This document shows, piece after piece, positions 1,252 through 51,967 of a DNA stretch of 64,000 nucleotides. This DNA is from an uncultured Bacilli bacterium (GTDB lineage Bacteria; Bacillota_I; Bacilli_A; RF39; UBA660), in contig CAKOLN010000001.1 in assembly GCA_934096075.1 (NCBI GenBank), positions 79,242-143,241 on the forward strand, in the 5' to 3' direction. Below the pieces are notes generated by a model that saw nothing but the letters and a program-made list of their open reading frames with translations, searched no databases and was not told the origin of the DNA. Positions within the stretch are counted from its first letter, which is position 1; each line of letters begins with the position of its first letter. Made by a program: the position numbers and the translations under genes.

Positions 1252-3456
1252 ATGATTAAGTTAGATAAGGTAAGTAAGTATTATTATTCTAATGGTATGG
1301 TGAGTTCTGGAATCTCTAAAGTTTCTTTGGAATTTAATATGGGTGAATTTATTGCGATTACTGGTGCTTCAGGAAGTGGTAAATCAACATTATTAAATGT
1401 AATAAGTGGTCTTGATACTTATGAAGATGGAGAAATGTATATTAATGGAAAAGAGACTAGTCATTATACAGAAAGAGAATATGAAGATTATAGAAGAAAT
1501 TATATTGGTAATATATTTCAAAACTTTAATCTTATTAATAGTTATACTGTTTATCAAAATGTTGAATTGGTTCTTTTATTAAATGGATATAAAAGAAGAG
1601 AGGTTAAATCAAGAATATTAGATATTTTGAAGAAAGTTGGACTTTATAAGTATAGACATACTAAAGTATCTAAATTAAGTGGTGGTATGAAACAACGTGT
1701 TGCGATTGCGAGATGTTTGGCAAAAGATACACCTATAATAATTGCTGATGAACCTACTGGTAATTTAGATTCTAGGTCTGCAGAAAGTATTATTAAATTA
1801 CTAAGTGAAATAAGTGAATATAAATTAGTAATAATTGTAACACATAACTACGACCAAGTAAGTGAGTATGTTACAAGAAAAATTACTATGCATGATGGAA
1901 GAGTAATTGAAGATAATAAAATAAAGGATTATAAAAAAGTAGATAATTTTAATTTAAGTACTAATAAAGATGCTAAGATAGTATCAAAATTAAGACTTGG
2001 TATTAGAAATACATTTAATATATTACCAAAGTTCTTATTACTTAGTTTTGTGTATTTGTTTATTATTTTTGCAATTAGTATGACATATGCTTCTTTTCAA
2101 AAAGGTGAATATGAGTCAAGTATAAGTGGAAGTAATTCATTTTTTAATACTAAAGATTTAGAGAAAAGAATTATTATTAGGAAGTTAGATGGAACAAATA
2201 TAACTGATGAAGAATATGAAAGTATTTCTCATATTAATAATGTAGATTATATTGTTAGAGATGATTTAGTTTTAGATAATCAAATAGATATTTATGATAA
2301 TGATGTTTATTTATATGGATATGCTAATGAGGCTTCTAAGTTTAAAGGTAAAGTTGATTTAGGAAGAAATATTGAAAATGATAACGAGATAATAGTTAGT
2401 GGTAGTAAGAATAATTGGTATTTGAGTGATGGAGATAAAATATTAGACAAAGAACTTAATATTGAAGGAATATATAATAGTGATGGAAGTGAGTATAAAG
2501 TAAAGATCGTAGGTATTTCTTATGATGAGTCTAGAGAATATGAGTTAGATTTTTATATGAGTAGTACATTAATAAATAAATTTAATAAAACTTTGATTAA
2601 TAGATTTAGTAAGATGTCATTTTTATTTAATGATAAGTTAGTTAATTATGATTATGTATCTAGTGATATGTTAGTATCTAGTGATAAAGTACCTGAAGGA
2701 ACAGCATTTATTAGCGAAAATGATAGTTATAATTGTAAGAAGGGTAATTGTAAAAAAACTAATTTAGAAGTATCTTTAACAAATCAAAAATTTACTAATA
2801 AAATAGATTTAACTATTACTAATGAATATAATAAGAGTAATATTAAGAGATTATTAGGTATAGATTATAATGATGAGCATTCTAATTCTATTTATGTAAA
2901 TCAAGCAGATTATGATAAGTTATATGATATGAACAGTTATCAATCTAGTGTGTTTATTAAAGATTATAAAGAAAAAGATAGTGTTATTAATACATTAAAA
3001 GATATGGGATTTGATACTTTCTATCTTAAAGATGGTTTATATATATCTACAATGGTAGGTGTTCTTAGAATAGCAAAATTATTAGTTATGGTTACTTTGA
3101 TAGTAGTTTTATTCTTTATAAGTTATTTTGTAATTAAGTTAATACTTAAATCTAGAAATATTTACTTTAGTATTATAAGAATGCTTGGTAGTAGTATTAG
3201 AACAACAAAAAGATTATTAGATATAGAATTATTAACAATTACTAATTTAATGTATTTGATTTATATTACTTTCTTAGAATTAGTTAAGCATAATGTTATA
3301 GCTAGTGGTATGAAAGATACCTTGAGTTATTTAGGATTAAAGGAAAATATAATTATTTATGTTATTTTAATAGTTATGACATTCTTATTAAGTACTAAAT
3401 ATGCTAGAAAGATATTTACTAATAGTTCTATGAGTGTTTATAGGAGTGAGGTGTAA
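1252..3456 (+). CDS. ABC transporter, fused ATP-binding/permease (MacB/FtsX-like)
   Basis: Walker A GASGSGKST, signature LSGGMKQRVAIAR and Walker B IIIADEPT are present. One TM segment follows the ATPase, then a ~470-aa extracytoplasmic region, then a C-terminal 3-TM FtsX-like block. Confidence 0.8.
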   Translation: MIKLDKVSKYYYSNGMVSSGISKVSLEFNMGEFIAITGASGSGKSTLLNVISGLDTYEDGEMYINGKETSHYTEREYEDYRRNYIGNIFQNFNLINSYTVYQNVELVLLLNGYKRREVKSRILDILKKVGLYKYRHTKVSKLSGGMKQRVAIARCLAKDTPIIIADEPTGNLDSRSAESIIKLLSEISEYKLVIIVTHNYDQVSEYVTRKITMHDGRVIEDNKIKDYKKVDNFNLSTNKDAKIVSKLRLGIRNTFNILPKFLLLSFVYLFIIFAISMTYASFQKGEYESSISGSNSFFNTKDLEKRIIIRKLDGTNITDEEYESISHINNVDYIVRDDLVLDNQIDIYDNDVYLYGYANEASKFKGKVDLGRNIENDNEIIVSGSKNNWYLSDGDKILDKELNIEGIYNSDGSEYKVKIVGISYDESREYELDFYMSSTLINKFNKTLINRFSKMSFLFNDKLVNYDYVSSDMLVSSDKVPEGTAFISENDSYNCKKGNCKKTNLEVSLTNQKFTNKIDLTITNEYNKSNIKRLLGIDYNDEHSNSIYVNQADYDKLYDMNSYQSSVFIKDYKEKDSVINTLKDMGFDTFYLKDGLYISTMVGVLRIAKLLVMVTLIVVLFFISYFVIKLILKSRNIYFSIIRMLGSSIRTTKRLLDIELLTITNLMYLIYITFLELVKHNVIASGMKDTLSYLGLKENIIIYVILIVMTFLLSTKYARKIFTNSSMSVYRSEV

Positions 3457-26558: not shown

Positions 26559-27098
26559 ATGGAAAATGAAAAATTATGGTATGTAGTTAATACTTATTCA
26601 GGTCATGAAAGTAAAGTAAAAGAAAATTTAGAAATGCGTACTGAATCAATGGGAATGGAGAATAATATTTTTAGAGTTGTTATTCCAGAAACTAAAGAAG
26701 TTGAAATTAAGGATGGAGTAAAAAAAGAAAAAACTAAGAAAATGTTTCCAGGATATGTTTTAGTTGAAATGATTATGAGTGATGAAGCTTGGTATGCTGT
26801 TAGAAATACGCCAGGTGTTACTGGATTTATAGGATCAAGTGGTAAAGGTGCTAAGCCTATTCCATTAAGTCCTGCTGAAATTGATAAAATACTTGCTAAT
26901 GAAGGAATGAGTAGATTAGATTTAGAAAATGATCTAAAAGAAGGAGATTCTGTTAAAATTGTTGATGGTCCATTTAAAGAAATGTATGGTAAAGTTCAAA
27001 ATATAGATTTAGAAAATCAAAAACTAAATGTTTTAATTGATTTATTTGGACAAGAAACACCTGTAGAAGTTGAGTTAGCTCAAATAAGTAAGATGTAA
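26559..27098 (+). CDS. nusG: Transcription termination/antitermination protein NusG
   Basis: WYVVNTYSGHE NGN domain and a C-terminal KOW domain (GDSVKIVDGPFKEMYGKV). Confidence 0.9.
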   Translation: MENEKLWYVVNTYSGHESKVKENLEMRTESMGMENNIFRVVIPETKEVEIKDGVKKEKTKKMFPGYVLVEMIMSDEAWYAVRNTPGVTGFIGSSGKGAKPIPLSPAEIDKILANEGMSRLDLENDLKEGDSVKIVDGPFKEMYGKVQNIDLENQKLNVLIDLFGQETPVEVELAQISKM

Positions 27099-27117
27099 AG
27101 TTTTAGTAAATAAAATG

Positions 27118-27147
27118 ACAAGTGATAAGAAAATCACTTGTTTTTTT
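27118..27147 (+). terminator. Rho-independent terminator after nusG
   Basis: ACAAGTGAT-aagaaa-ATCACTTGT plus TTTTTTT. Confidence 0.65.
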
Positions 27148-27206
27148 GTAAAATAAAAGCATTTTTATAGTTTTTGTCGTATATATATTTAGGAGGTAAA
27201 AAAATT

Positions 27207-28094
27207 ATGAACTATTATGATGAAATAAAAAATATATTAGTAGATAATATAATTGGAAGAAAAGTAAGAGAATATAAAAGTAATCAAAAAGATTTAGAAG
27301 GATACTATAATGTAGGTAAATTACTTATAGAAGCACAAGGTGGAGTAGCAAGGGCTAAATATGGTAATCAACTTATTAAAGAATATTCTAAAAGATTAAC
27401 GAGTGAACTTGGAAAAGGGTTTTCTATTAGAAGTTTAAAATATATGAGGAAGTTTTATTTAGTTTGTCAAAAAGGGCAATCACTGATTGCCTTATTTATA
27501 AAATATAATGTATCATGGACATTTGTTACAAAACTTTTAAAACTTACTGATATTTGTGAAATTGAATATTATATTAAAAATATTTATAAATTTAATTTGA
27601 CAACTAGAGAATTAGATTTGAAACTTAAAACCGATGAATATGATAGACTTGATGATGAAGTAAAAGAAAAGTTATCTAAACAAGAAGTAGTACCAATTAA
27701 AGATACAATACCTAATCCAGTGGTATTAAATGGTTTAATGTTTAAAGAAAAACTAACAGAGAAAATACTTCAAAAATATATAGATGAAAATCCAATTGAA
27801 TTATGTAAATCCTTAGGTGAAGGATATACATATGTTGATAGTCAGTATAAAATTAAAATAGGAAATAATTACAATTACATTGATGTCTTATTGTTTAATA
27901 TCATAGATATGAATTATATAGATTTAGAATTAAAGAAAGAATATCATAATAAGACTAATGGAGTAATCTTATGTAGAAAAGATAATAAATGGTTAATAAA
28001 GTATATAAATAGTGAAGAAATAAGAATAAGAAGATTTATAACAAGTGATGAAAATATTTGTGAATGTTTAGGAGAAAAAAATGAACTATTATGA
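27207..28094 (+). CDS. YhcG/DUF1016-family PD-(D/E)XK nuclease-like protein, copy 1 (internally deleted)
   Basis: N-terminal EYKSNQKDLEGYYNVGKLLIEAQGG...AKYGNQLIKEYSKRLTSELGKGFSIRSL matches the DUF1016/YhcG pattern. About 25 aa are missing relative to copies 2 and 3, including the VVVELKITELKKEH core. ATG at 27207 follows a GGAGG RBS. Confidence 0.6.
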   Translation: MNYYDEIKNILVDNIIGRKVREYKSNQKDLEGYYNVGKLLIEAQGGVARAKYGNQLIKEYSKRLTSELGKGFSIRSLKYMRKFYLVCQKGQSLIALFIKYNVSWTFVTKLLKLTDICEIEYYIKNIYKFNLTTRELDLKLKTDEYDRLDDEVKEKLSKQEVVPIKDTIPNPVVLNGLMFKEKLTEKILQKYIDENPIELCKSLGEGYTYVDSQYKIKIGNNYNYIDVLLFNIIDMNYIDLELKKEYHNKTNGVILCRKDNKWLIKYINSEEIRIRRFITSDENICECLGEKNELL

Positions 28095-29040
28095 TGAAAT
28101 AAAAAATATATTAGTAGACAATATAATTGGAAGAAAAGTAAGAGAATATAAAAGTAATCAAAAAGATTTAGAAGGATACTATAATGTAGGTAAATTACTT
28201 ATAGAAGCACAAGGTGGAGAAACAAGAGCTAAATATGGTAATCAACTTATTAAAGAATATTCTAAAAGATTAACGAGTGAACTTGGAAAAGGATATTCAG
28301 TTAGATCTCTAACTAATATGAGAACGTATTATTTACATCTGCAAAAACGGCAGACAGTGTCTGCCAAATTCAAAGCACTTAATATAACCTGGTCAAACAT
28401 ATGTGAAATATTGAAATTAAAAGATGAAAAAGAAATAGAATATTACTTAAATATTTCAAATAAATTTAATTTATCTACAAGAGACTTAAGAAAAAGAATT
28501 AAATCCAAAGAATATAATAGACTTGATGATGAAGTAAGAGAAAAACTATCTAGACAAGAAGTGGTACCAATTAAAGATACAATACCTAATCCAGTGGTTC
28601 TAAGTGGTTTAAAGTTTAAAGAAAAACTAACAGAAAAAATACTTCAGAAATATATAGATGAAAATCCAGTTGAATTTTGTAAGTCTTTAGGTGAGGGGTA
28701 CACATATGTTGATAGTCAATATAAAATTAAAATCGGAAATAATTATAATTATATTGACGTATTGTTGTTTAATACAATTGATTTAAATTATGTTGTAGTG
28801 GAATTAAAGATAACAGAATTAAAGAAAGAACATATAGGACAAATACAAACATATATGAATTATATAGATTTAGAACTTAAGAAAGAATATCATAATAAGA
28901 CTAATGGAGTAATCTTATGTAGAAAAGATAATAAATGGTTAATAAAGTATATAAATAGTGAAGAAATAAGAATAAGAAGATTTATAACAAGTGATGAAAA
29001 TATTTGTGAATGTTTAGGAGAAAAAAATGAACTATTATGA
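28081..29040 (+). CDS. YhcG/DUF1016-family PD-(D/E)XK nuclease-like protein, copy 2
   Basis: 319 aa. DUF1016-like N-domain plus a C-terminal D...VVVELKITELKKEHIGQIQTYMNYID restriction-endonuclease-like core. Start overlaps the copy 1 stop. Confidence 0.65.
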   Translation: MNYYDEIKNILVDNIIGRKVREYKSNQKDLEGYYNVGKLLIEAQGGETRAKYGNQLIKEYSKRLTSELGKGYSVRSLTNMRTYYLHLQKRQTVSAKFKALNITWSNICEILKLKDEKEIEYYLNISNKFNLSTRDLRKRIKSKEYNRLDDEVREKLSRQEVVPIKDTIPNPVVLSGLKFKEKLTEKILQKYIDENPVEFCKSLGEGYTYVDSQYKIKIGNNYNYIDVLLFNTIDLNYVVVELKITELKKEHIGQIQTYMNYIDLELKKEYHNKTNGVILCRKDNKWLIKYINSEEIRIRRFITSDENICECLGEKNELL

Positions 29041-29971
29041 TGAAATAAAAAATATATTAGTAGACAATATAATTGGAAGAAAAGTAAGAGAATATAAAAG
29101 TAATCAAAAAGATTTAGAAGGATACTATAATGTAGGTAAATTACTTATAGAAGCACAAGGTGGAGAAACAAGAGCTAAATATGGTAATCAACTTATTAAA
29201 GAATATTCTAAAAGATTAACGAGTGAACTTGGAAAAGGATATTCAGTTAGATCTCTAACTAATATGAGAACGTATTATTTACATCTGCAAAAACGGCAGA
29301 CAGTGTCTGCCAAATTCAAAGCACTTAATATAACCTGGTCAAACATATGTGAAATATTGAAATTAAAAGATGAAAAAGAAATAGAATATTACTTAAATAT
29401 TTCAAATAAATTTAATTTATCTACAAGAGACTTAAGAAAAAGAATTAAATCCAAAGAATATAATAGACTTGATGATGAAGTAAGAGAAAAACTATCTAGA
29501 CAAGAAGTGGTACCAATTAAAGATACAATACCTAATCCAGTGGTTCTAAGTGGTTTAAAGTTTAAAGAAAAACTAACAGAAAAAATACTTCAGAAATATA
29601 TAGATGAAAATCCAGTTGAATTTTGTAAGTCTTTAGGTGAGGGGTACACATATGTTGATAGTCAATATAAAATTAAAATCGGAAATAATTATAATTATAT
29701 TGACGTCTTATTGTTTAATGTTATAGATATGAATTATGTTGTAGTAGAATTAAAAATAACAGAATTAAAGAAAGAACATATTGGTCAGATAGAAACATAT
29801 ATGAATTATATAGATTTAGAACTTAAGAAAGAATATCATAATAAGACTAATGGAGTAATCTTATGTAGAAAAGATAATAAATGGTTAATAAAGTATATAA
29901 ATAGTGAAGAAATAAGAATAAGAAGATTTATAACAAGTGAAGAAAATATTTGTGAATGTTTTGATGAGTAA
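29027..29971 (+). CDS. YhcG/DUF1016-family PD-(D/E)XK nuclease-like protein, copy 3
   Basis: 314 aa. Nearly identical to copy 2 at the DNA level, with a slightly different C-terminus (ICECFDE). Confidence 0.65.
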   Translation: MNYYDEIKNILVDNIIGRKVREYKSNQKDLEGYYNVGKLLIEAQGGETRAKYGNQLIKEYSKRLTSELGKGYSVRSLTNMRTYYLHLQKRQTVSAKFKALNITWSNICEILKLKDEKEIEYYLNISNKFNLSTRDLRKRIKSKEYNRLDDEVREKLSRQEVVPIKDTIPNPVVLSGLKFKEKLTEKILQKYIDENPVEFCKSLGEGYTYVDSQYKIKIGNNYNYIDVLLFNVIDMNYVVVELKITELKKEHIGQIETYMNYIDLELKKEYHNKTNGVILCRKDNKWLIKYINSEEIRIRRFITSEENICECFDE

Positions 29972-30154
29972 TGGTTTAAAGCGATATAAATATAAAATAT
30001 TTTTAATTATCTTTGGTGGTGTTTGCTTGTTTTATAATGCATTTAATGATAATATTATTTAAGTTTATTGATGAATGAATAAATACATAGATTTATAATC
30101 TTATGATATAATAAATAATATTAGTGTTATAAAAATTAATTAGGAAGTGGTAAT

Positions 30155-37782: not shown

Positions 37783-39639
37783 ATGTATAACACAGAAAAA
37801 AATCCAGGTTTTAATATTAAAGATGTAATAATTAAAGCAATATTCTTGGTATTATTTATATTATTATTAGTATGGTTATTTCCAAAAGTTCCTAATATGA
37901 AACCTTTTTATAGCAACGTATTTAGAGAAAATATAAAATATATGCAAGATGCTGCTGAAAGTTATTATACAACTGATAAATTGCCTAAAAATGTAGGTGA
38001 TACAGCTGAAATGACTTTACAAGATATGATTGATAAGAATTTAATCTTACCTTTTGTAGATGAAGATGGTAATTCTTGTGATACTAAAAAATCATATGTT
38101 GAAGTTAAAAAGAATAAAAACGATTATACTTTGAAAGTTAATCTAGTTTGTCCTAATGAAGAAAATTATGTTGAAAAAACTTTAGGATGTTATCAATATT
38201 GTGAAGATGGTAATTGTCAAAATAGTGATACAAAAAATAATGAAGAAAAACCATTAACAGCAATTGAATATCAATTTAAACAAACTGGTAGTAAAGATGT
38301 AAGTTATTATACTTGTCCAGATGGTGGTACTTTAACTAATGGTATTTGTAATATTTATACAACAGATACTTATAAAGCTACGGTAATTACTACTAAAGGT
38401 GAAGAATATTGTAAAGATGGTGGTGAACTTAAAAACGGAAGATGTTATAAAGTTGAAACTACTAAATATAAAGCATCAGTTAGAGAAGGTGTATATTATT
38501 GTCCAGATGGTGGAAGATTAAATGGTGATACTTGTTATGTTGATAGAAGTTCAAGTTATGATGCAACAGAAGTATTAAGTTGTCCAAATGGAGGAAGTCT
38601 TCAAGGAACTAAATGTATTGTTGAACATACATCAAGTGGTTCAAGTTATGATGCTTCAGTTAGATATACTTGTCCAAATGGAGGATCATTAAGTGGTACA
38701 AGATGTATTACTAAATCTGGAACAAGTGGTTCAAGTTATGGTGCTTCAGTTAGATATACTTGTCCAAATGGAGGATCATTAAGTGGTACAAAATGTATTA
38801 CTAAAGCTGGAACAAGTGGTTCAAGTTATCCTGCTACTAAAACTACTAGTAGAGTAGAAAGCAGAACACCATTAAGTGGAAGTGATTTAACATCTGCTGG
38901 AACTGATACTGTGTATATTTGTACATCAAGTTCAAATTGTCCAGGATATGTAACAATTTATTACTATATTAGAACAGGTTATACTTGTCCAAATGGAGGA
39001 TCATTAAGTGGTACAACTTGTAAAGTTTCTGGAACTCCAGAGCAAAGTTATGGTGCAACACCAAGTTATTATTGTCCAAATGGAGGAACAATAAGTGGTT
39101 CAACTTGTAGAGTTTCTGGAACTTCAGAAGAAAGTTATAGTGCAACACCAAATTATTATTGTCCAAATGGAGGAACAATAAGTGGTTCAACTTGTCGTAT
39201 AAGTGGCTCATCTAGTTCATCTAGTTATGATGCATCAAGGACATTAAGTTGTCCGAATGGAGGAAAACTTCAAGGAACTAAATGTGTAATTTCTGGCTCA
39301 TATACTTATAAAGCTACAAAGTCTAATGGTGAAAAATATTGTCCAAATGGAGGAAATTTATCAGGTGATTACTGCGTAGCAACAAAAACAACAGATTATA
39401 AAGCTAATGTAACTGATGGTAAAACAACTAAAACTTGTCCAAATGGAGGAAGTCTTAAAGATGATGGATTATGTTATGTAAATAAACTTTCTAAATCTTA
39501 TAAAGCTACTTTAAATACAAGAAAACAATATTATACAAATTATAAATGGAGTAGAGAAGAATCTTTACCAGGATGGGTAAGAACAGGAGAAACTAGACAA
39601 GTTACAATTGGTTCTACAAGTTCTAATAAACAAAAATAG
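37783..39639 (+). CDS. Cys-rich CPNGG-repeat surface protein, hypothetical
   Basis: N-terminal TM, then at least 14 repeats of Y-x-CP(N/D)GG-x-L-x-G-x-C at about a 30-aa period. It includes two tandem 90-bp near-identical DNA units at 38635-38814. Confidence 0.55.
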   Translation: MYNTEKNPGFNIKDVIIKAIFLVLFILLLVWLFPKVPNMKPFYSNVFRENIKYMQDAAESYYTTDKLPKNVGDTAEMTLQDMIDKNLILPFVDEDGNSCDTKKSYVEVKKNKNDYTLKVNLVCPNEENYVEKTLGCYQYCEDGNCQNSDTKNNEEKPLTAIEYQFKQTGSKDVSYYTCPDGGTLTNGICNIYTTDTYKATVITTKGEEYCKDGGELKNGRCYKVETTKYKASVREGVYYCPDGGRLNGDTCYVDRSSSYDATEVLSCPNGGSLQGTKCIVEHTSSGSSYDASVRYTCPNGGSLSGTRCITKSGTSGSSYGASVRYTCPNGGSLSGTKCITKAGTSGSSYPATKTTSRVESRTPLSGSDLTSAGTDTVYICTSSSNCPGYVTIYYYIRTGYTCPNGGSLSGTTCKVSGTPEQSYGATPSYYCPNGGTISGSTCRVSGTSEESYSATPNYYCPNGGTISGSTCRISGSSSSSSYDASRTLSCPNGGKLQGTKCVISGSYTYKATKSNGEKYCPNGGNLSGDYCVATKTTDYKANVTDGKTTKTCPNGGSLKDDGLCYVNKLSKSYKATLNTRKQYYTNYKWSREESLPGWVRTGETRQVTIGSTSSNKQK

Positions 39640-41890: not shown

Positions 41891-41940
41891 ATTATATCTC
41901 TTGAATAAAAACAGATGATTTGATAAAATTAAAATGTAAA

Positions 41941-42112
41941 AAATAAAGGAGCAAACGAAAACTATGAAATTAAATAATTTCTTTTATAACAAAACAATAG
42001 TTTGTTATGGGGGGGGGTTTATTACTAACTAACTCTCATAGTTTTTGTTTTACATTAAATTCATAGGCACAAGTCTATGGATTTTTTCGTGTGTGAGAAA
42101 AGAGGTAAAGGT
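41941..42112 (+). promoter_or_regulatory. Conserved 5' leader, copy 1
   Basis: About 170 nt, about 90% identical to 48757-48922. It contains a GGAG RBS, a uORF (41964-42032), a G9 tract (42009-42017), a hairpin AAATTCATAG-loop-CTATGGATTT plus TTTTT, then the RBS AGAGGTAAAGG of the main gene. Confidence 0.55.
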
Positions 42113-44875
42113 ATGAAATTTATAAAAACAAAAAAGGGTATTTTTTATGGAGTAGTTTTTTTACTAATGATAACATTAGGAGTGAGTTATGGGACTTTTG
42201 TATTTGTATCAAATCCATATAAATCAAGTAATATGTTAATAAGCAATTTATTATATGGAGTTAGTATACAAGAAGAAGGTAGTACAAGCGAAATAGATAA
42301 TAATAAGGTAACAATACCGGCTAAAACTAAAGGATATTTTTATGTAACAATATCAAGTGTAAATAAAATAGATAGTAAATATACTTTGGCTTACAAATCA
42401 ACAAATACGGTGAATGTAAAATATACTGATAGAACTAACTGGAATCCAGAAGGATTAATAAAAGGTTATGATGAAACTACTTATAGTAAGAAAGTAAAAG
42501 TGGTGGTAGATAATACATCAAATACAAGTAGTACAGAGGTAACGTTTGGTGTGTTTGGTGGATATACTTATAATTCATATGAAACAATAAGTTTAGAAAA
42601 TGGCTATTTAACCATAAATGGTCCATATACAGAGGTTATACAAGGAACAAATAGATTAGTTGATATAGTAGAAAAAGATACCTCATGTATAACAGAAGAA
42701 AATAAAACATGTATGTATGGAGGAGAAACTATAAGTAACTACTTACAATACCCAGTGAATGATGATGTTACAAAAAATTTATGGAGAATAATTGGAACAT
42801 ACAATATAGATGGAGAAGTAGTAACAAAGGTAATAAGTATAACAAATGGTATAACGACACAAAGTACGCTGATGACAGATTTAATTAGCTTCTATAATAC
42901 ACTAGAAGAAAAAGAAAAATATGTATATAATACAAATAAATTTAATTGTGATACAAAATGTAATACGAGTAGTTTTACAAATATAGGAATTCTTAATAAG
43001 TATGAATATGATGTTATAGGTGGAGACAATTCATATTTGAAAGAATATGTACCATTTTATATATTAAATAATGGTGAAGTAGAAAATCTATATAGTACAG
43101 AAACAAGTAGTAATTTGAGAGGAAATATATATTTTCAAACAGATGTTAAAGTAACAGGAAGTGGAACAAAAACTGATCCATATAAAGTAAGTAAAGGACA
43201 AGATGTGAATTTAGTAGCTTATACTTTAAATGGAGAATCTACGACGAAAACATATGAATGGTTAAAAACGAATAATGCAATTAATGGAATAAGCTGTGAA
43301 AATGGTTCGGTTGCAGAGTGGGATTATGATAAAAATGGAATATATTTTTCAAAAGTAAATGTTCCTGATTATTGTACAGTAGATTTTGGAGATGGATATA
43401 CAGTGACTTTAAAAGCATTAAATGGTACTGTGACAAGTGCAACATCAATTTCAGTTGGAGAGAATGGAACAGCTTTATTTACAATAACTCCAAATAGTGG
43501 TTATACATTAGATGGCTCAACAGTTACATGTACTGGAAGTGGTTTAGCAGATATAACAACAAGTGGTGTTAAGGTCAGTAATGTAAAAAGTAGTCAAACT
43601 TGTATTATAACATTAGATAAAATAGGTACAAGTTTAGCAAATCATATAATAAATACTTATACAACAAATAATGCAGTAGGTACAAGGACAAGCTTTTCGT
43701 CAGCATTTACAGAAAAAAATAATAAAATATATTCAACAAATAGAACGGAAGATGGAAGTACGGTTTACTATTATGCAGGAAATACAATTAATAACTGGGT
43801 GAAGTTTGGTAAATATACCAAAACTGTAGTAAGAGGTTATGATTCAAGTTCAACAAATATAACTTTACACTATAAGGAATTTAATAGTATGTCTGATTGT
43901 ACTAATGATGAATATTACAAATATAATTGTGAATATGCATGGAGCGCAGGAGACGATATGTATTGGAGAATTATAAGAACAAACGAAGATGGTAGTGTAA
44001 GACTATTATATGCGGGAAATGGTCCAGATACTAGAAACGGTTATATTAGTCCTAGTTTGATTTATAATATTAGTGTTTCAACTTCACATATGGGAGTAGG
44101 ATATATGTATGGGGAAATAACTTCATCTGGTACAGGTAATTATTCTTTAGAAAAGCTAAGAGCAAATACAAATCCTAGTACAGTTAAAATAGCTGTGGAT
44201 AAGTGGTATGTTGATAACATTTTAGATAGTTATGGTAAGTATGTAAGCAAGACAGCAATATATTGTAATGATAAGAGTATTTATTATTCAGGATCTTCAA
44301 GTTTAGTTCCATCAATTTATTCAGGTAGTAGCACTATTTTTGGATCCTATACTAGAATAATTACTGATAATTATTTAACATATAAATGTGGAAGTAATTC
44401 AAGTGGTGTACTTAATGTTACTGCAAGTGATGCGGATAAATTTAATGCATCTAAAGATGACAAATACAAAAATTATGGTAAATTAAATTGTAGTGTTAAT
44501 GGATATATGAATGAAGATTGTCCAGTAGCACTTATGACTGGAGATGAACTTGCATTTGCGGGCGCAAATTTTAACTCGGAGAATGCATCAGCTTGGTATG
44601 CTGTTAATAGTAAAGCCAAATCTGTAAATAATGGTAATGTTTGGTTAACAATGACTCCAGCAAGTTTTAATGGAAATAACAATGGTACAGGTTCACCCGG
44701 AGTTTTGGGTGCAACAGGAGATGGAAGATTAGCTGGTTCACAAACTAATGTAAATAGTATTATACGTCCAGTCCTTAGTCTTAAAGCTTGTGTTAAATAT
44801 TCTAAGGGTGATGGTACGTCAAGTAATCCATACGAAATAAGTATAAATGATGTATGCGCAAATGCTGAAAATTAG
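42113..44875 (+). CDS. Large secreted protein with TasA/camelysin-like N-terminal domain, paralog 1
   Basis: Signal/TM followed by GTFVFVSN (compare camelysin GTFAFFSD). The central region is Thr/Ser-rich. The C-terminal ~330 aa are shared with the 48923 gene: TEDGSTVYYYAGNTINNWVKFGK, YWRIIRTNEDGSVRLLY, YPVALMTGDELAFAG, IRPVLSLK, NPYEI. Confidence 0.55.
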   Translation: MKFIKTKKGIFYGVVFLLMITLGVSYGTFVFVSNPYKSSNMLISNLLYGVSIQEEGSTSEIDNNKVTIPAKTKGYFYVTISSVNKIDSKYTLAYKSTNTVNVKYTDRTNWNPEGLIKGYDETTYSKKVKVVVDNTSNTSSTEVTFGVFGGYTYNSYETISLENGYLTINGPYTEVIQGTNRLVDIVEKDTSCITEENKTCMYGGETISNYLQYPVNDDVTKNLWRIIGTYNIDGEVVTKVISITNGITTQSTLMTDLISFYNTLEEKEKYVYNTNKFNCDTKCNTSSFTNIGILNKYEYDVIGGDNSYLKEYVPFYILNNGEVENLYSTETSSNLRGNIYFQTDVKVTGSGTKTDPYKVSKGQDVNLVAYTLNGESTTKTYEWLKTNNAINGISCENGSVAEWDYDKNGIYFSKVNVPDYCTVDFGDGYTVTLKALNGTVTSATSISVGENGTALFTITPNSGYTLDGSTVTCTGSGLADITTSGVKVSNVKSSQTCIITLDKIGTSLANHIINTYTTNNAVGTRTSFSSAFTEKNNKIYSTNRTEDGSTVYYYAGNTINNWVKFGKYTKTVVRGYDSSSTNITLHYKEFNSMSDCTNDEYYKYNCEYAWSAGDDMYWRIIRTNEDGSVRLLYAGNGPDTRNGYISPSLIYNISVSTSHMGVGYMYGEITSSGTGNYSLEKLRANTNPSTVKIAVDKWYVDNILDSYGKYVSKTAIYCNDKSIYYSGSSSLVPSIYSGSSTIFGSYTRIITDNYLTYKCGSNSSGVLNVTASDADKFNASKDDKYKNYGKLNCSVNGYMNEDCPVALMTGDELAFAGANFNSENASAWYAVNSKAKSVNNGNVWLTMTPASFNGNNNGTGSPGVLGATGDGRLAGSQTNVNSIIRPVLSLKACVKYSKGDGTSSNPYEISINDVCANAEN

Positions 44876-44882
44876 GTGATAT

Positions 44883-45107
44883 ATGATAACAGAAAATGAA
44901 CTTAAAATGATAATAGGAAATAATATAAAGAAATATAGAAAAGAAAAAGGAATTACTCAAAAAGAATTAGCAAGTTTAATTGGAGTAACAACTCCACTTT
45001 TAGGTGCACTTGAAAGTAAGAATATAAGTCAAGGAATAAGTAATTATACATTATATAAAATAGGTAAAACTTTGGATATTCCAGTAAATAAGTTTTTTGA
45101 ACATTAA
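44883..45107 (+). CDS. Small XRE-family HTH DNA-binding protein
   Basis: 74 aa with IKKYRKEKGITQKELASLIGVT HTH. It lies immediately downstream of the TasA-like gene. Confidence 0.6.
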   Translation: MITENELKMIIGNNIKKYRKEKGITQKELASLIGVTTPLLGALESKNISQGISNYTLYKIGKTLDIPVNKFFEH

Positions 45108-47548: not shown

Positions 47549-48736
47549 GTGAATAGAATAGGTACTGTAGTAAGAGGTATTAGAACAGGAGTTATAAAAG
47601 AAGGAGATAATCTAAAAGATATAGTTGTTAATAGTATAATAGAAGCTAGTAAAGAAGATAATTTTGAATTAAGTGATAGAGATGTTGTCGCTATTACTGA
47701 AGCAGTCGTGGGTATTAGTCAAGGTAATTATGTTACAGTAGATGAAATAGCATTAGATGTAAAAAATAAATTTAATACTAATCATATAGGTATAGTTTAT
47801 CCTATATTAAGTAGAAATAGATTTGCAGTATTACTTAGTGCTTTTGCTAGAAGTATGGATAAGATAACAATGTTATTAAGTTATCCTAGCGATGAAGTAG
47901 GTAATGATATAATGGATAAAGATAAACTTAGAAAAAGTGGTATACCTATGAATAATTATGTTATTAGTGAAAGTGAATATGAAGAATTATTTGGAGATTT
48001 TAAACATGTATTTACTGGTGTAAATATGGTTGATTTTTATAGAGATTTAGCTAAAAAAGAAAATTGTGAGATAGAATTTATTTTCTCTAATAATCCAGAA
48101 ACTATATTAGATTATACTAAAGATGTATTATGTGCTGATATACATACAAGAGAATATACTAAGAGTATTATAAAAGAAAAGGGTGGTAATGTAGTACTTG
48201 GTTTAGATGATATTCTTAATGTTAGTGTTAATGGAAGTGGATTTAATCCTACATATGGTTTATTAGGTAGTAATAGAAGTACTGAAGAAAGAGTTAAGTT
48301 ATTCCCAAGTCATTGTCAAGAATTAGTTGAAAGTATACAAGAAGAGTTTAAGAATAGAACTGGCAAAACTATTGAAGTTATGGTTTATGGAGATGGTGCT
48401 TTTAAAGATCCAGTAGGTAAAATTTGGGAATTAGCCGATCCAGTAGTTAGTCCTGGTTATACAAAAGGTTTAGAAGGTAGTCCTAATGAAATTAAATTAA
48501 AATATATATCTGATAATAAATTTGCTGATTTAAAGGGAGAAGAACTTAATGAAGCGATAAAGAAAGAAATAAAAGAAAAAGAATCTAATTTAAAGGGTAC
48601 TATAATAACACAAGGAACTACACCTAGAAGATATACTGATTTGATTGGTTCACTTTGTGATTTAACAAGTGGTAGTGGAGATAAGGGTACACCTGTAGTA
48701 TTAGTACAAAATTATTTCAAAAATTATGCTGATTAA
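47549..48736 (+). CDS. CofE/F420-0:gamma-glutamyl ligase-like domain protein
   Basis: The N-terminal IRTGVIKEGDNLKDIVVNSI...SDRDVVAITEAVVGISQGN pattern resembles the CofE/FbiB ligase fold. A longer C-terminal extension follows. Confidence 0.35.
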   Translation: MNRIGTVVRGIRTGVIKEGDNLKDIVVNSIIEASKEDNFELSDRDVVAITEAVVGISQGNYVTVDEIALDVKNKFNTNHIGIVYPILSRNRFAVLLSAFARSMDKITMLLSYPSDEVGNDIMDKDKLRKSGIPMNNYVISESEYEELFGDFKHVFTGVNMVDFYRDLAKKENCEIEFIFSNNPETILDYTKDVLCADIHTREYTKSIIKEKGGNVVLGLDDILNVSVNGSGFNPTYGLLGSNRSTEERVKLFPSHCQELVESIQEEFKNRTGKTIEVMVYGDGAFKDPVGKIWELADPVVSPGYTKGLEGSPNEIKLKYISDNKFADLKGEELNEAIKKEIKEKESNLKGTIITQGTTPRRYTDLIGSLCDLTSGSGDKGTPVVLVQNYFKNYAD

Positions 48737-48756
48737 CTTGAATAAAAATGTAAAAA

Positions 48757-48922
48757 ATAAAGGAGCTAATGAAAACTATGAGATTAAAGGATTTTTTATA
48801 TCATAACAATAGTTTGTTATGGGTGGGGTTATTATTAACTAACTCTCATAGTTTTTGTTTTATATTAAATTCATAGGCACAAGTCTATGGATTTTTTGGT
48901 ACTATAAAAAATGGAGGTAAAG
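48757..48922 (+). promoter_or_regulatory. Conserved 5' leader, copy 2
   Basis: Paralog of 41941-42112. The uORF 48778-48876 (32 aa) has its stop inside the 5' arm of the AAATTCATAG...CTATGGATTT hairpin. The G-tract is interrupted (GGGTGGGG). Confidence 0.55.
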
Positions 48923-50704
48923 ATGAAAGAAAAGAAATATTTAGTACTAGGCATAATGATAGTACTACTAACATTTGTAGGAGTATCACTAGCATACTTC
49001 TTAACAACAATAGAAGGGGATAGAAAAAATATTACAATTAATACAGCAGACTTAAGAGTAATATTTAATAATGGAGACGAGATAGAAGGAACGGAGATAG
49101 AACCAGGATGGAGTGTAACTAAAACATTTAGTGTAGAAAATAAAACTAAGAATGAATATAAATATAATATAGTAATAGAAAATTTAGTAAACACATTTAA
49201 GACAATAGGATATTTACAATACAAAATAACAAGTACAGATGGTGGATACAACATGACTGATTTTGAAGATGTACCAAAATCATCAAGTGCAACAGATGCA
49301 GTACTATCATATAGTGTATCAATACCATCAAAATCAACACAAAACTATACAATAACAATACAATATAAAAATGATGAGAATGTAGATCAAAGCATAGATT
49401 CGTTAAATAATGCAGTAGTAACGGGAAAACTATATATAACTGAGGGTACGACAAATTCAAAATTGTTAACTCAAGCAATGTTAGAAGATAATCCAACAAT
49501 AGAAGAAAGAACAGACTTTAATGTGGCAAACACAGCAACAACAACAGGAACAATCTATCAAACAAATAAAACAGAAGATGGAAGCACAGTGTACTATTAT
49601 TCAGGAAACACAATAAACAACTGGGTAAAGTTTGGAAAAGAATCAATACAAGAATGTACATATAACGGTGACCAAGTACATTATGGTATTTATGATGAAA
49701 ACACATCTATTTCTTATAAAAATATAAGAGGAGTTGCTTCAATCGATGAATGTGTTTCATTTAATATTTGTTTAGATAGTGAATATGGACCTATAGTTGG
49801 TTTAGCTGATGAAGAAGAATGTGAAAAAGCTGGTGGTAATTGGACAACTGACAAGGCTATAGTTGGTGAAAAGTTAGAAAAAGATATATATTGGAGAATA
49901 ATAAGAACAAATGAAGATGAAGGTGTAAGGCTCTTATACTCTGGAACCAATCCTGATACAACATCAGGATATATAGGCATATCTCAATTTAATGAAAATA
50001 ATAACGGTCCAATGTATGTAGGATATATGTATGGAACGAGTGGAACATTAGAAAATAACCGAAATAATACAAGTGATAGTACAATAAAGACACACATAGA
50101 CATATGGTATAGAAATAATTTATTGACAAACTATGAAAAGTATATAAGTAAAAGTGCAATTTATTGTAATGATAGAAGTACTCGAAATAATTCGTACTCT
50201 ACTAGTAATTCATTCTATTATGGTGGTTACACAAGATTAGCTACATATAAGAATCCATCGTATAAATGTGGAGCAAATACAAGTAATGGTTTATTTGAAA
50301 GTACACAAGCAGTAGAAGATAAATTTAGTGCAAGTACTGAAGGTGGAGGAAATGGACAACTTACATATCCAGTAGCACTTATGACTGTGGATGAAGTGTC
50401 TTTTGCGGGTGGCAAGTATAGTACATCTAGTCCTAACACATGGTATTATGCAAACAGTAATGGAGATTCAATTACAGGAAGTACTATGTGGTGGTCTTTA
50501 TCGCCTTCTGGTTTTTATAATTCTAATATTGATGTGTTTAGAGTCGAAGATGGCTTTCTAGGTTACGATGTATACTATACATTATCTGTTATCCGTCCTG
50601 TCATAAGTTTAAAATCATGTGTTGAATATTCTTCTGGTAATGGGACTCCAGAAAGTCCTTATGAAGTAACAATAGATGATACATGTGCTAGTGCTGAAAA
50701 TTAA
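48923..50704 (+). CDS. Large secreted protein with TasA/camelysin-like N-terminal domain, paralog 2
   Basis: Signal peptide then SLAYFLTT...NITINTADLRVIFNN...IEPGWSVTKTFSVENKTKNEYKYNIVIE (compare camelysin AFFSD...NTFATGTLDL...LKPGDTIEKEFKLENKGSLDIKKV). The C-terminal domain is shared with the 42113 gene. Confidence 0.6.
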   Translation: MKEKKYLVLGIMIVLLTFVGVSLAYFLTTIEGDRKNITINTADLRVIFNNGDEIEGTEIEPGWSVTKTFSVENKTKNEYKYNIVIENLVNTFKTIGYLQYKITSTDGGYNMTDFEDVPKSSSATDAVLSYSVSIPSKSTQNYTITIQYKNDENVDQSIDSLNNAVVTGKLYITEGTTNSKLLTQAMLEDNPTIEERTDFNVANTATTTGTIYQTNKTEDGSTVYYYSGNTINNWVKFGKESIQECTYNGDQVHYGIYDENTSISYKNIRGVASIDECVSFNICLDSEYGPIVGLADEEECEKAGGNWTTDKAIVGEKLEKDIYWRIIRTNEDEGVRLLYSGTNPDTTSGYIGISQFNENNNGPMYVGYMYGTSGTLENNRNNTSDSTIKTHIDIWYRNNLLTNYEKYISKSAIYCNDRSTRNNSYSTSNSFYYGGYTRLATYKNPSYKCGANTSNGLFESTQAVEDKFSASTEGGGNGQLTYPVALMTVDEVSFAGGKYSTSSPNTWYYANSNGDSITGSTMWWSLSPSGFYNSNIDVFRVEDGFLGYDVYYTLSVIRPVISLKSCVEYSSGNGTPESPYEVTIDDTCASAEN

Positions 50705-50710
50705 CATAAT

Positions 50711-50748
50711 AAAAGATATAAAATATGATAAAATACTTTATATCTTTT
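50711..50748. terminator. Bidirectional terminator hairpin
   Basis: AAAGATATAAA-loop-TTTATATCTTT with TTTT downstream, between convergent genes. Confidence 0.5.
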
Positions 50749-51890: not shown

Positions 51891-51967
51891 TGGTAGCGAC
51901 GCTCGGAATCGAACCGAGAACCTCACGGGTATGAACCGTGCGCTCTAGCCAGTTGAGCTACATCGCC
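51891..51967 (-). tRNA. tRNA-Met or tRNA-Ile2 (anticodon CAU)
   Basis: The reverse complement GGCGATGTAGCTCAACTGGCTAGAGCGCACGGTTCATACCCGTGAGGTTCTCGGTTCGATTCCGAGCGTCGCTACCA folds as a cloverleaf with anticodon loop TTCATAC. A hairpin terminator lies downstream at 51822-51855. Confidence 0.8.

Follow-up and report, generated by a model that had tools for sequence, protein, structure and literature searches.

We analyzed a 64,000-nt stretch of contig CAKOLN010000001.1 (GenBank assembly GCA_934096075.1, positions 79,242 to 143,241 of the forward strand), hereafter the window, from an uncultured Bacilli bacterium, and within it two leader sequences that each lie directly 5′ of a large paralogous gene. 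Exact matches to proteins of the window place it on a 182-kb contig of a Hadza human gut metagenome. The leaders (copy 1, 41936–42112; copy 2, 48750–48922) are ∼175 nt long and non-coding. They are about 87–88% identical over ∼190 nt and 94% identical across an 80-nt 3′ core. A preliminary description of the window had reported two near-duplicate leaders at this locus, each with a Shine–Dalgarno sequence (SD), a short upstream open reading frame (uORF), a terminator, and the SD of the main gene, and all of these parts are indeed present (Table 1). Copy 1 also carries a run of nine G's. In a window of 25.5% G+C, this G9 is the sole run of six or more G or C residues in 64 kb, as the preliminary description had recognized. 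A 52-nt core pattern has two matches in the window where none is expected by chance, and nhmmer with the family profile recovers copies 1 and 2 as the only leaders in it.

Both leaders end in a hairpin that has the architecture of an intrinsic terminator. In copy 1, a terminator scan matches 42057–42084 together with the U-tract, with 0.0 matches expected in shuffles. The architecture stands as first described, but the 8-nt loop drawn at that time has to be revised: the hairpin is better drawn with a 12-bp stem and a 4-nt loop, at −11.8 kcal/mol. Copy 2 is skipped by the scan only through its tail rule, which counts four T's after the extended stem. The start that the gene caller assigns to gene 1, ATG 42077 (932 aa), falls inside the terminator 3′ arm. 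This start is probably spurious; ATG 42113, which has an SD and a signal-peptide-like N terminus, is the likelier one.

The position of the uORF stop relative to this hairpin depends on the tract. With G9, the copy-1 uORF stops at 42030–42032. This early stop had been correctly located, but it lies 34 nt, not 40 nt, 5′ of the long-frame TAG (42064–42066), which falls within the terminator 5′ arm, and it is 27 nt before the stem. With G8, the stop falls 7 nt inside the stem, and so does the stop of copy 2, whose 32-codon uORF ends, as previously stated, at a TAG within the hairpin 5′ arm. It had further been proposed that a one-base slip would restore the long frame of copy 1. This holds for −1 (or +2) only, since +1 leads to the other short frame (TAA 42026–42028). 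When a 30-nt ribosome footprint is placed at the stop in constrained folding, it covers the whole terminator arm of the G8 and copy-2 leaders but does not reach that of the G9 leader. A comparison of folds with and without a ribosome had been suggested as a check; in it, the footprint abolishes the hairpin in the long state only. Copies 1 and 2 differ by two 2-nt indels, which put the middle of the “peptide” in different frames; its sequence is therefore not conserved between them.

Table 1. Features of the two leaders and their genes, in window coordinates
Feature	Position	Strand	Remarks
Copy-1 predicted sigma-70 promoter, TTGAAT-17-TAAAAT with TG extension	41901..41929	+	Same promoter in most homologous leaders
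Copy-1 predicted transcription start site	near 41936	+	
Copy-1 leader SD, AAGGAG	41946..41951	+	GGAG/AGGA 8–13 nt 5′ of the uORF AUG conserved across leaders
Helix P1, 5′ strand, holds the uORF AUG, pairs with 42036–42050	41953..41967	+	Fold, covariation
Copy-1 uORF, G9 (short) state: ATG 41964, 22 codons plus TAA 42030–42032	41964..42032	+	
Copy-1 uORF with G8: 33 codons, stop TAG 42064–42066		+	
Hairpin P2 within the uORF: pyrimidine tract and inner stem pair with TTTGTTAT and the first tract G's	41980..42014	+	Fold
Poly-G tract G9, proposed slippage site setting the uORF frame	42009..42017	+	
Early stops closing the two short frames: TAA 42026, TAA 42030, TAG 42039	42026..42041	+	
Helix P1, 3′ strand, TCATAGTTTTTGTTT	42036..42050	+	
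Copy-1 predicted intrinsic terminator: 12-bp stem 42057–42084, ACAA loop, U6 (42082–42087)	42057..42087	+	Terminator scan
SD of gene 1, AGAGG	42101..42105	+	Gene 1 ATG at 42113
Gene 1: 920-aa secreted/surface protein, N-terminal hydrophobic helix, C-terminal domain common with gene 2	42113..44875	+	
Copy-2 leader	48750..48922	+	Starts 14 nt past the stop of the preceding gene
Copy-2 SD	48760–48765	+	
Copy-2 uORF, long state, 32 codons, TAG 48874–48876, 7 nt inside the terminator 5′ arm	48778..48876	+	
Copy-2 interrupted tract, GGGTGGGG	48821..48828	+	Identical in three independent contigs
Copy-2 predicted terminator, hairpin 48867–48894 plus U6	48867..48897	+	Hairpin identical to copy 1
Gene 2: 593-aa paralog	48923..50704	+	

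A nucleotide search of related genomes had been suggested, and it proved productive. Iterated nhmmer over fetched related loci (80 loci kept, most from a handful of metagenome-assembled genomes, or MAGs) yielded 45 homologous leader copies, each immediately 5′ of a family gene, in several MAG species. The relatives that bear them are small-genome uncultured gut Bacilli, with labels that include “uncultured Bacilli,” “Tenericutes bacterium UMGS1658,” and “Clostridium sp. CAG:628”; their sources are human gut samples (Hadza, Nepali, and others) and MAGs of animal origin. Nearly all of these leaders keep a sigma-70 promoter, an SD with AUG, a tract of G7–G11, and a design in which exactly one reading frame stays open. 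In most homologs the promoter reads TTGAAT/TTGAAC-17-TAAAAT with a TG extension and ends 16–18 nt 5′ of the SD. This position places the tract ∼73 nt into the transcript, and not in the promoter spacer. Tract lengths are mostly G8, but also G7 and G9, in one group of leaders (group 1) and run from G8 to G11 in the other (group 2). In 541 kb of AT-rich related loci there are 33 runs of at least 7 G or C residues; 32 of them lie in recognized leaders, and the 33rd lies in a gap-cut leader (L069, 2637–2644) where a scaffold gap, a run of N's, begins right after the G8. A metagenome pattern search with the window-specific tract context gave 0 matches, and a more general pattern gave 15 loci.

Wherever the tract is intact, the uORF runs without a stop from its SD-preceded AUG through the tract. 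Beyond the tract, 33 of the 36 aligned leaders have two frames closed within 15 nt and exactly one frame open for 41–52 nt, up to the terminator stop. This one-open-frame design is seen in all eight representatives chosen at <80% similarity, as against 11–17% of per-segment shuffles; a joint shuffle figure of ∼1e-7 overstates the significance because the sequences are homologous. The long-frame stop in most leaders is the TAG of a near-invariant “ATAG” in the terminator 5′ arm. The ATAG/CTA core of the stem is invariant, and its flanking pairs covary (AU/UA/UG and CG/UA in group 1, UA/GC/AU in group 2). An invariant ATAG beside covarying pairs is the pattern that would be expected if the stop codon, beyond mere pairing, is selected. 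The leader peptides themselves are not conserved between modules (MKLNNFFYNKTIVCYGGG..., MERIILFELSTKLGTNFGGG, MRILENSNCNNNCLLWGG, and MKINSLVQNKVQNGGG...), so it is their length, and not their sequence, that can matter.

The leader ORFs range from 16 to 34 codons, with 16–22 in the short state and 33–34 in the long state. Most of the distinct intact-tract leaders are short. Four are long, namely, the G8 allele of copy 1 (L084/L101), L021, L028, and L026. The shift needed to enter the long frame is +1 in some modules and −1 in others. In window copy 2, L097, and L096, all upstream of genes, an interrupted or decayed tract is fixed in the long frame.

The leaders are also highly structured. Their fold z scores relative to shuffled controls are −4.0 and −4.6 for the two window copies and average −4.5 over 36 leaders. 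Two conserved helices, P1 and P2, were absent from the preliminary description. In all 36 minimum free energy folds, P1 joins the uORF AUG to the stretch that immediately precedes the terminator. P1 shows compensatory changes from AU to GC in group 1 and from CG to UA and GC to AU in group 2, and its register differs by group (AAAACUAUGA/UCAUAGUUUU versus ACAUGAAAAAC/GUUUUUCAUGU) in such a way that the AUG is always included. On the given structures of P1 and the terminator, 99.6% and 94% of cells are paired, compared with 18–62% when the partners are slid, and the covariation exceeds all 500 shuffles. P2 lies inside P1 and ends in the G tract, which is paired with an upstream pyrimidine stretch; its inner stem is module-specific in sequence but retained. 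We speculate that P1 might restrict uORF initiation to a co-transcriptional window and insulate the terminator, and that P2 and the tract might pause the polymerase so that the ribosome catches up and coupling is kept. A candidate antiterminator, in which the start region of the uORF would pair with the 5′ arm of the terminator (CTATGAA/TTCATAG in group 1), was rejected as a general feature because group-2 leaders do not have the pairing, and no conserved alternative antiterminator pairing was found across both leader groups.

Heterogeneity in the length of the G tract had been predicted, and a difference of this kind exists between samples. We compared the copy-1 locus across three independent assemblies that carry an identical 932-aa called protein; the source assemblies are ERZ4560852, ERZ4568042, and ERZ27286994. 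The window contig, at 69× coverage, has G9. Another Hadza sample (L084/L103) has G8 and differs from the window in 12,204 nt by 3 mismatches and this single 1-nt gap. G8 is likewise found in a third sample (L101), where 13,546 nt contain 19 mismatches to the window and, again, only this gap. G8 at this locus puts the uORF in the long frame. For the P0013 gene, tried as a further comparison locus, there is only a 75-nt upstream gap, and the leader is absent. The evidence for hypermutability of the tract is thus real but thin.

From the anatomy of the leaders, their conservation, their frame design, the covariation of their helices, and the G8/G9 polymorphism between samples, we infer that each leader is probably a phase-variable leader-peptide transcription attenuator. 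The proposal that leader-peptide attenuation is gated by a slippery G tract is in this way supported by comparative data, including the co-occurrence of the parts and the precedent of Streptococcus gallolyticus pil1/pil3 (Danne et al. 2014, PLoS Pathog, PMC3894217). In such an attenuator, the sigma-70 promoter would start a ∼175-nt leader RNA, and a ribosome would load at the strong SD and translate the short ORF that contains the poly-G tract, the length of which would fix the reading frame downstream. In two frames the ribosome would meet a stop within ∼15 nt of the tract and at least 27 nt before the terminator; the hairpin would form, and transcription would end short of the main gene (OFF). 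A ribosome in the third frame would reach the TAG 7 nt inside the 5′ arm, where its footprint would block the hairpin, and RNA polymerase would read on into the gene for the surface protein, which is equipped with an SD of its own (ON). Replicative slipped-strand mispairing at the G tract would flip the frames and thereby provide heritable, reversible on/off switching of single paralogs. Translation of the uORF, termination, antitermination, and replication as the level of slippage are steps that the model supplies, and the direction, with the long state as ON, is taken by analogy with S. gallolyticus. Copy 1, with its G9, is predicted to be OFF, and copy 2, with its T-interrupted tract, is predicted to be locked ON and is possibly transcribed from upstream.

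Several observations weigh against this interpretation. The length polymorphism is seen at one locus only, and one of the two G8 assemblies there (L084/L103) has a coverage of only 4.8×. At the P0036 locus (P0036/L010/L110), both samples compared have G8. More broadly, G8 predominates strikingly among group-1 leaders, both where ON needs +1 and where it needs −1; the tract could thus be held by selection at one length and not switch freely. Many group-1 leaders are near-identical modules, however, and hence are not independent. Decayed tracts are fixed not only long but also, in three leaders, short (L090, L091, and L087:10032); the SD of L087:10032 is mutated, and the ORF that follows this leader has only 196 aa. 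No recognizable promoter of its own was found for the copy-2 leader. The strength of the conserved RNA structure goes beyond the needs of a simple model. Finally, tight coupling of transcription and translation is not universal in Firmicutes.

Some of the same observations lead to another account of the same hardware, in which the change of frame is not heritable. RNA polymerase would slip on the conserved G8–G10 template, or the ribosome on GGGGGGG, and the outcome would be graded or condition-dependent leakiness, not clonal phase variation. A hairpin just 5′ of the tract would aid the polymerase, and the hairpin that lies 3′ of the tract in some modules would aid the ribosome. The near fixation of G8 in group 1 regardless of shift direction, the identity of the P0036 locus in two samples, and the conservation of hairpins that flank the tract all fit such slippage. 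Penno and colleagues reportedly showed (PNAS, 2015) that a nascent hairpin beside a homopolymer stimulates transcriptional slippage. Even so, we consider this account unlikely: the G8/G9 difference exists at the DNA level, where it is the only indel in 12–13.5 kb, the tracts of homologs range from G7 to G11, and the spacing between hairpin and tract varies from 2 to 7 nt between modules. Moreover, the two levels of slippage can coexist and are not mutually exclusive. A different role for the structure would make P1, P2, and the pairing of the G run with pyrimidines the sensor of a cis-regulatory RNA, whether a riboswitch or a protein- or small-RNA-binding leader, with an incidental uORF. The strongly negative folds, the compensatory changes in P1 and the terminator, and the constant inclusion of the AUG in P1 despite its group-specific register would suit this role. 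Nonetheless, we regard it as improbable. A known riboswitch or other Rfam element had been named early on as an alternative, and Rfam at gathering and E-value thresholds returned nothing credible on the window, the leader, or seven related loci, the weak matches falling far below gathering scores. The leaders showed no conserved unpaired core of the sort that forms a ligand pocket, and the interior of P1 is swapped wholesale between modules. Pure pairing would also tolerate A's opposite a U-rich strand, whereas the run is strictly G, and a sensor would leave unexplained the SD with its AUG, the one-open-frame design, and the invariant TAG in the stem.

Two further explanations start from the G's themselves. 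The uORF always encodes 2–4 consecutive Gly from GGG codons, in a genome of 25% GC, and a ribosome that stalled at these rare codons when charged tRNA-Gly is scarce might alter the folding, as in an amino-acid-sensing attenuator. Such glycine sensing is highly improbable: no conserved antiterminator was found, group 2 does not share the apparent 1:3 complementarity of group 1, the genes under control code for secreted proteins and not for enzymes of glycine metabolism, and a codon-run sensor would not tolerate a tract that varies in length and shifts the frame. The commonest uses of homopolymeric tracts are as promoter spacers and as in-gene frameshift sites. Precedent for conventional phase variation of these kinds is found in the discussion of the S. 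gallolyticus study (PMC3894217) and in the intragenic G-tracts of Bifidobacterium pili (PMC9187656). We nevertheless judge it extremely improbable that the G tract acts here as a −35/−10 spacer or as an in-gene frameshift site. A frameshift site is hard to square with the closure of all three frames between the tract and the main ATG, and with the SD and signal peptide that belong to the main gene itself. The promoter-spacer reading was rejected, since the conserved promoter lies upstream of the SD, about 80–110 nt 5′ of the tract with its end about 80 nt away, and the tract is not flanked by conserved hexamers.

The phase-variable attenuator, if that is what these leaders are, is not a fixed part of the family. 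About half of the family genes are without it, yet have the same promoter and 5′ leader start (L004, L007, L009, L027, L054, L056, and L057; ∼2850–3000). In L004 the leader has collapsed, with the P1 strands joined (AAAACTATGAA-AATAAA-TTCATAGTTTT); in L007 the SD and P1 are retained, and the G tract and terminator are absent. Thus, the attenuator looks like a module that can be inserted or deleted. In a subset of leaders (L088, both L048 leaders, L017, and L018), the standard promoter is replaced by a conserved TTTGTACAT(N3-5)TAATT(C/T)(G/A)CAAAT, ∼40 nt 5′ of the SD, which could be another type of promoter or an operator.

Modules also occur in mosaic combinations. The leader of L087 (3193–3368) differs from window positions 41936–42112 by a different uORF/hairpin module set between identical 5′ and 3′ leader ends, even though the gene behind it is 99.7% identical to gene 1. 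Similarly, four metagenome contigs (L085/L093 versus L089/L094) carry genes that are 97–98.7% identical behind two different leader modules. These mosaics suggest recombination or gene conversion between leaders. The copy-2 cassette, which comprises the leader and the 593-aa gene (48737–50737), is itself a presence/absence polymorphism: in L101 (13545–13573), homology to the window ends exactly at 48736, the stop of a F420-ligase-like gene, and a glycosyltransferase gene comes next, while L087 (10012–10766) has at the same site another leader module, with the decayed tract, mutated SD, and short ORF mentioned above. Together, mosaic leaders before 97–99.7% identical genes and the presence or absence of the cassette at 48737 suggest that leader modules may be shuffled. 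It is conceivable, but in our estimation unlikely, that the leaders make up a composite RNA/DNA device in which a near-fixed, hairpin-bracketed G8 and an AUG-hiding helix are combined, slippage occurs by RNA polymerase or ribosome as well as by the replisome, expression of each paralog is tunable and partly non-heritable, and modules are shuffled between paralogs by recombination. If true, this device would amount to a combinatorial surface-variation system in a Mollicutes-like gut lineage.

Genes 1 and 2 belong to a family with at least 6,567 database matches at E < 1e-5 and many paralogs per genome. The preliminary description had called their products TasA-like, a label that is not supported: Pfam and NCBIfam assign no family to either protein, a PDB sequence-profile search returned nothing, and neither a Pfam/NCBIfam match to TasA/camelysin (Peptidase_M73) nor a clear fold identity was found. 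Some homologs of the regulated proteins carry DUF6273. The IgAse N-terminal domain has been described as a C-type-lectin-like fold similar to Lcl (PMC12237041), and on that basis the part shared by the regulated proteins is probably a lectin-like binding domain. A secreted, adhesin-like role would fit phase variation. A 74-aa XRE-type helix-turn-helix gene (44883–45107, +) starts 8 nt past gene 1; its homologs (39–72% identity) lie directly after family genes in L034, L073, L049, L074, and L048 and directly 5′ of the next leader in L088 and L094. The protein may be a co-expressed regulator of other family members.

Elsewhere in the window, a 618-aa ORF (37783–39639, +) contains 87–90-nt tandem repeats with a Cys-containing “YxCPNGG...C” unit (repeat families D4–D6, D10, and D11). 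At 27033–30098 (+) there are three to four tandem paralogs of ∼310 aa with a 946-nt period, two copies of which are 99% identical over 300 nt (D1–D3). A single tRNA gene (51894–51967, −) is the only Rfam match in the window. Assemblies break at the leaders, as in the L069 gap and in contigs L002 and L102, which begin inside or just past the copy-1 leader. These breaks, and the start called for gene 1 within the terminator, carry a lesson for annotation: an ORF by itself does not reveal whether one of these genes is ON or OFF.

It is useful to compare the leaders with known systems that share some of their parts. In Bifidobacterium breve, replication slippage at an intragenic G-tract is an ON/OFF switch for sortase-pilus genes (Penno et al. 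2022, PMC9187656). As there, a poly-G switch would here control a surface structure in a gut commensal, but the B. breve tract frameshifts the structural gene itself, whereas the tract described here belongs to a separate uORF, and its predicted effect is on termination. As in trp/his attenuation, the position of the ribosome on a leader ORF would decide whether a terminator forms (PMC3894217, discussion). Unlike those systems, which depend on tRNA charging, stalling at regulatory codons, and a conserved 2:3 antiterminator, the leaders would take the reading frame as their signal, and no conserved antiterminator was found in them. An intrinsic terminator in the 5′ leader of a surface-protein gene, which we propose to gate expression here, has a counterpart in cwpV of Clostridioides difficile. 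Emerson and colleagues are said to have described this phase-variable Firmicute surface protein in 2009, with a leader terminator that is formed or not through recombinase-driven inversion. In contrast to such DNA inversion, we propose slippage and uORF translation, and no inverted repeats or recombinase were seen here. In Bordetella fim (poly-C) and Treponema pallidum tpr (poly-G), the length of a homopolymer in the promoter spacer controls transcription. A link between homopolymer length and the transcription of surface-protein paralogs would be common to these genes and ours; however, the fim and tpr tracts lie between or beside the promoter hexamers, whereas the tract studied here is ∼73 nt 3′ of the predicted start site, inside a uORF. 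Overall, the leaders show the defining features of none of the riboswitch, trp/his-type, promoter-spacer, or intragenic-frameshift classes.

Four features of the pil1/pil3 type, by comparison, are found: a promoter and an SD-led leader ORF, a repeat within that ORF, a predicted terminator before the gene, and the geometry of the stops. Repeat length differs between samples at the copy-1 locus, as G9 versus G8, but is G8 in two samples at P0036. In S. gallolyticus, where the switch is proven genetically, the leader peptide gene contains GCAGA repeats. Short peptides that end 28–39 nt before the terminator give mostly low-expressing cells, and out-of-frame repeat changes that give long peptides ending just before, in, or after the hairpin yield mostly high-expressing cells; ATG*, three-stop, and delta-terminator mutants were analyzed, and the delta-terminator mutant is locked in the high state (PMC3894217). 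In the literature that we searched, phase-variable control of a terminator by a leader peptide is documented only for S. gallolyticus, and the later papers among those retrieved cite only that species. Both systems have a promoter, a leader ORF (whose translation is presumed here) with a slippage-prone repeat, an intrinsic terminator, and then surface genes; in both, short-frame stops fall well before the hairpin and long-frame stops within or after it, most alleles are short, and the host is a Gram-positive gut commensal. The differences are equally clear. In place of 13–23 GCAGA units there is a G7–G11 homopolymer with a 1-nt switching step, the leader ORF has only 16–34 codons, in the long frame it ends at a conserved TAG whose place in the stem is fixed, and two conserved helices are added: P1 sequesters the uORF AUG, and P2 has its end in the tract. 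Furthermore, pil1 and pil3 are two pilus operons, whereas here there are many paralogs per genome and the regulated genes are not sortase pili. The two sets of leaders have no sequence similarity. Given the same class of mechanism with a different repeat, extra RNA elements, and a multigene family in an uncultured lineage, we class the leaders as a variant of the S. gallolyticus-type attenuator rather than as a new mechanism. The principle, which has rarely been documented, would not be new; what the leaders would offer is a second realization of it, independent of the first and far more widely deployed, which stands before about half the members of a large family of paralogs encoding secreted, probably lectin-like proteins. 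This homopolymer version of the same logic suggests that it may be a more general solution for stochastic surface variation in Gram-positives than has been appreciated.

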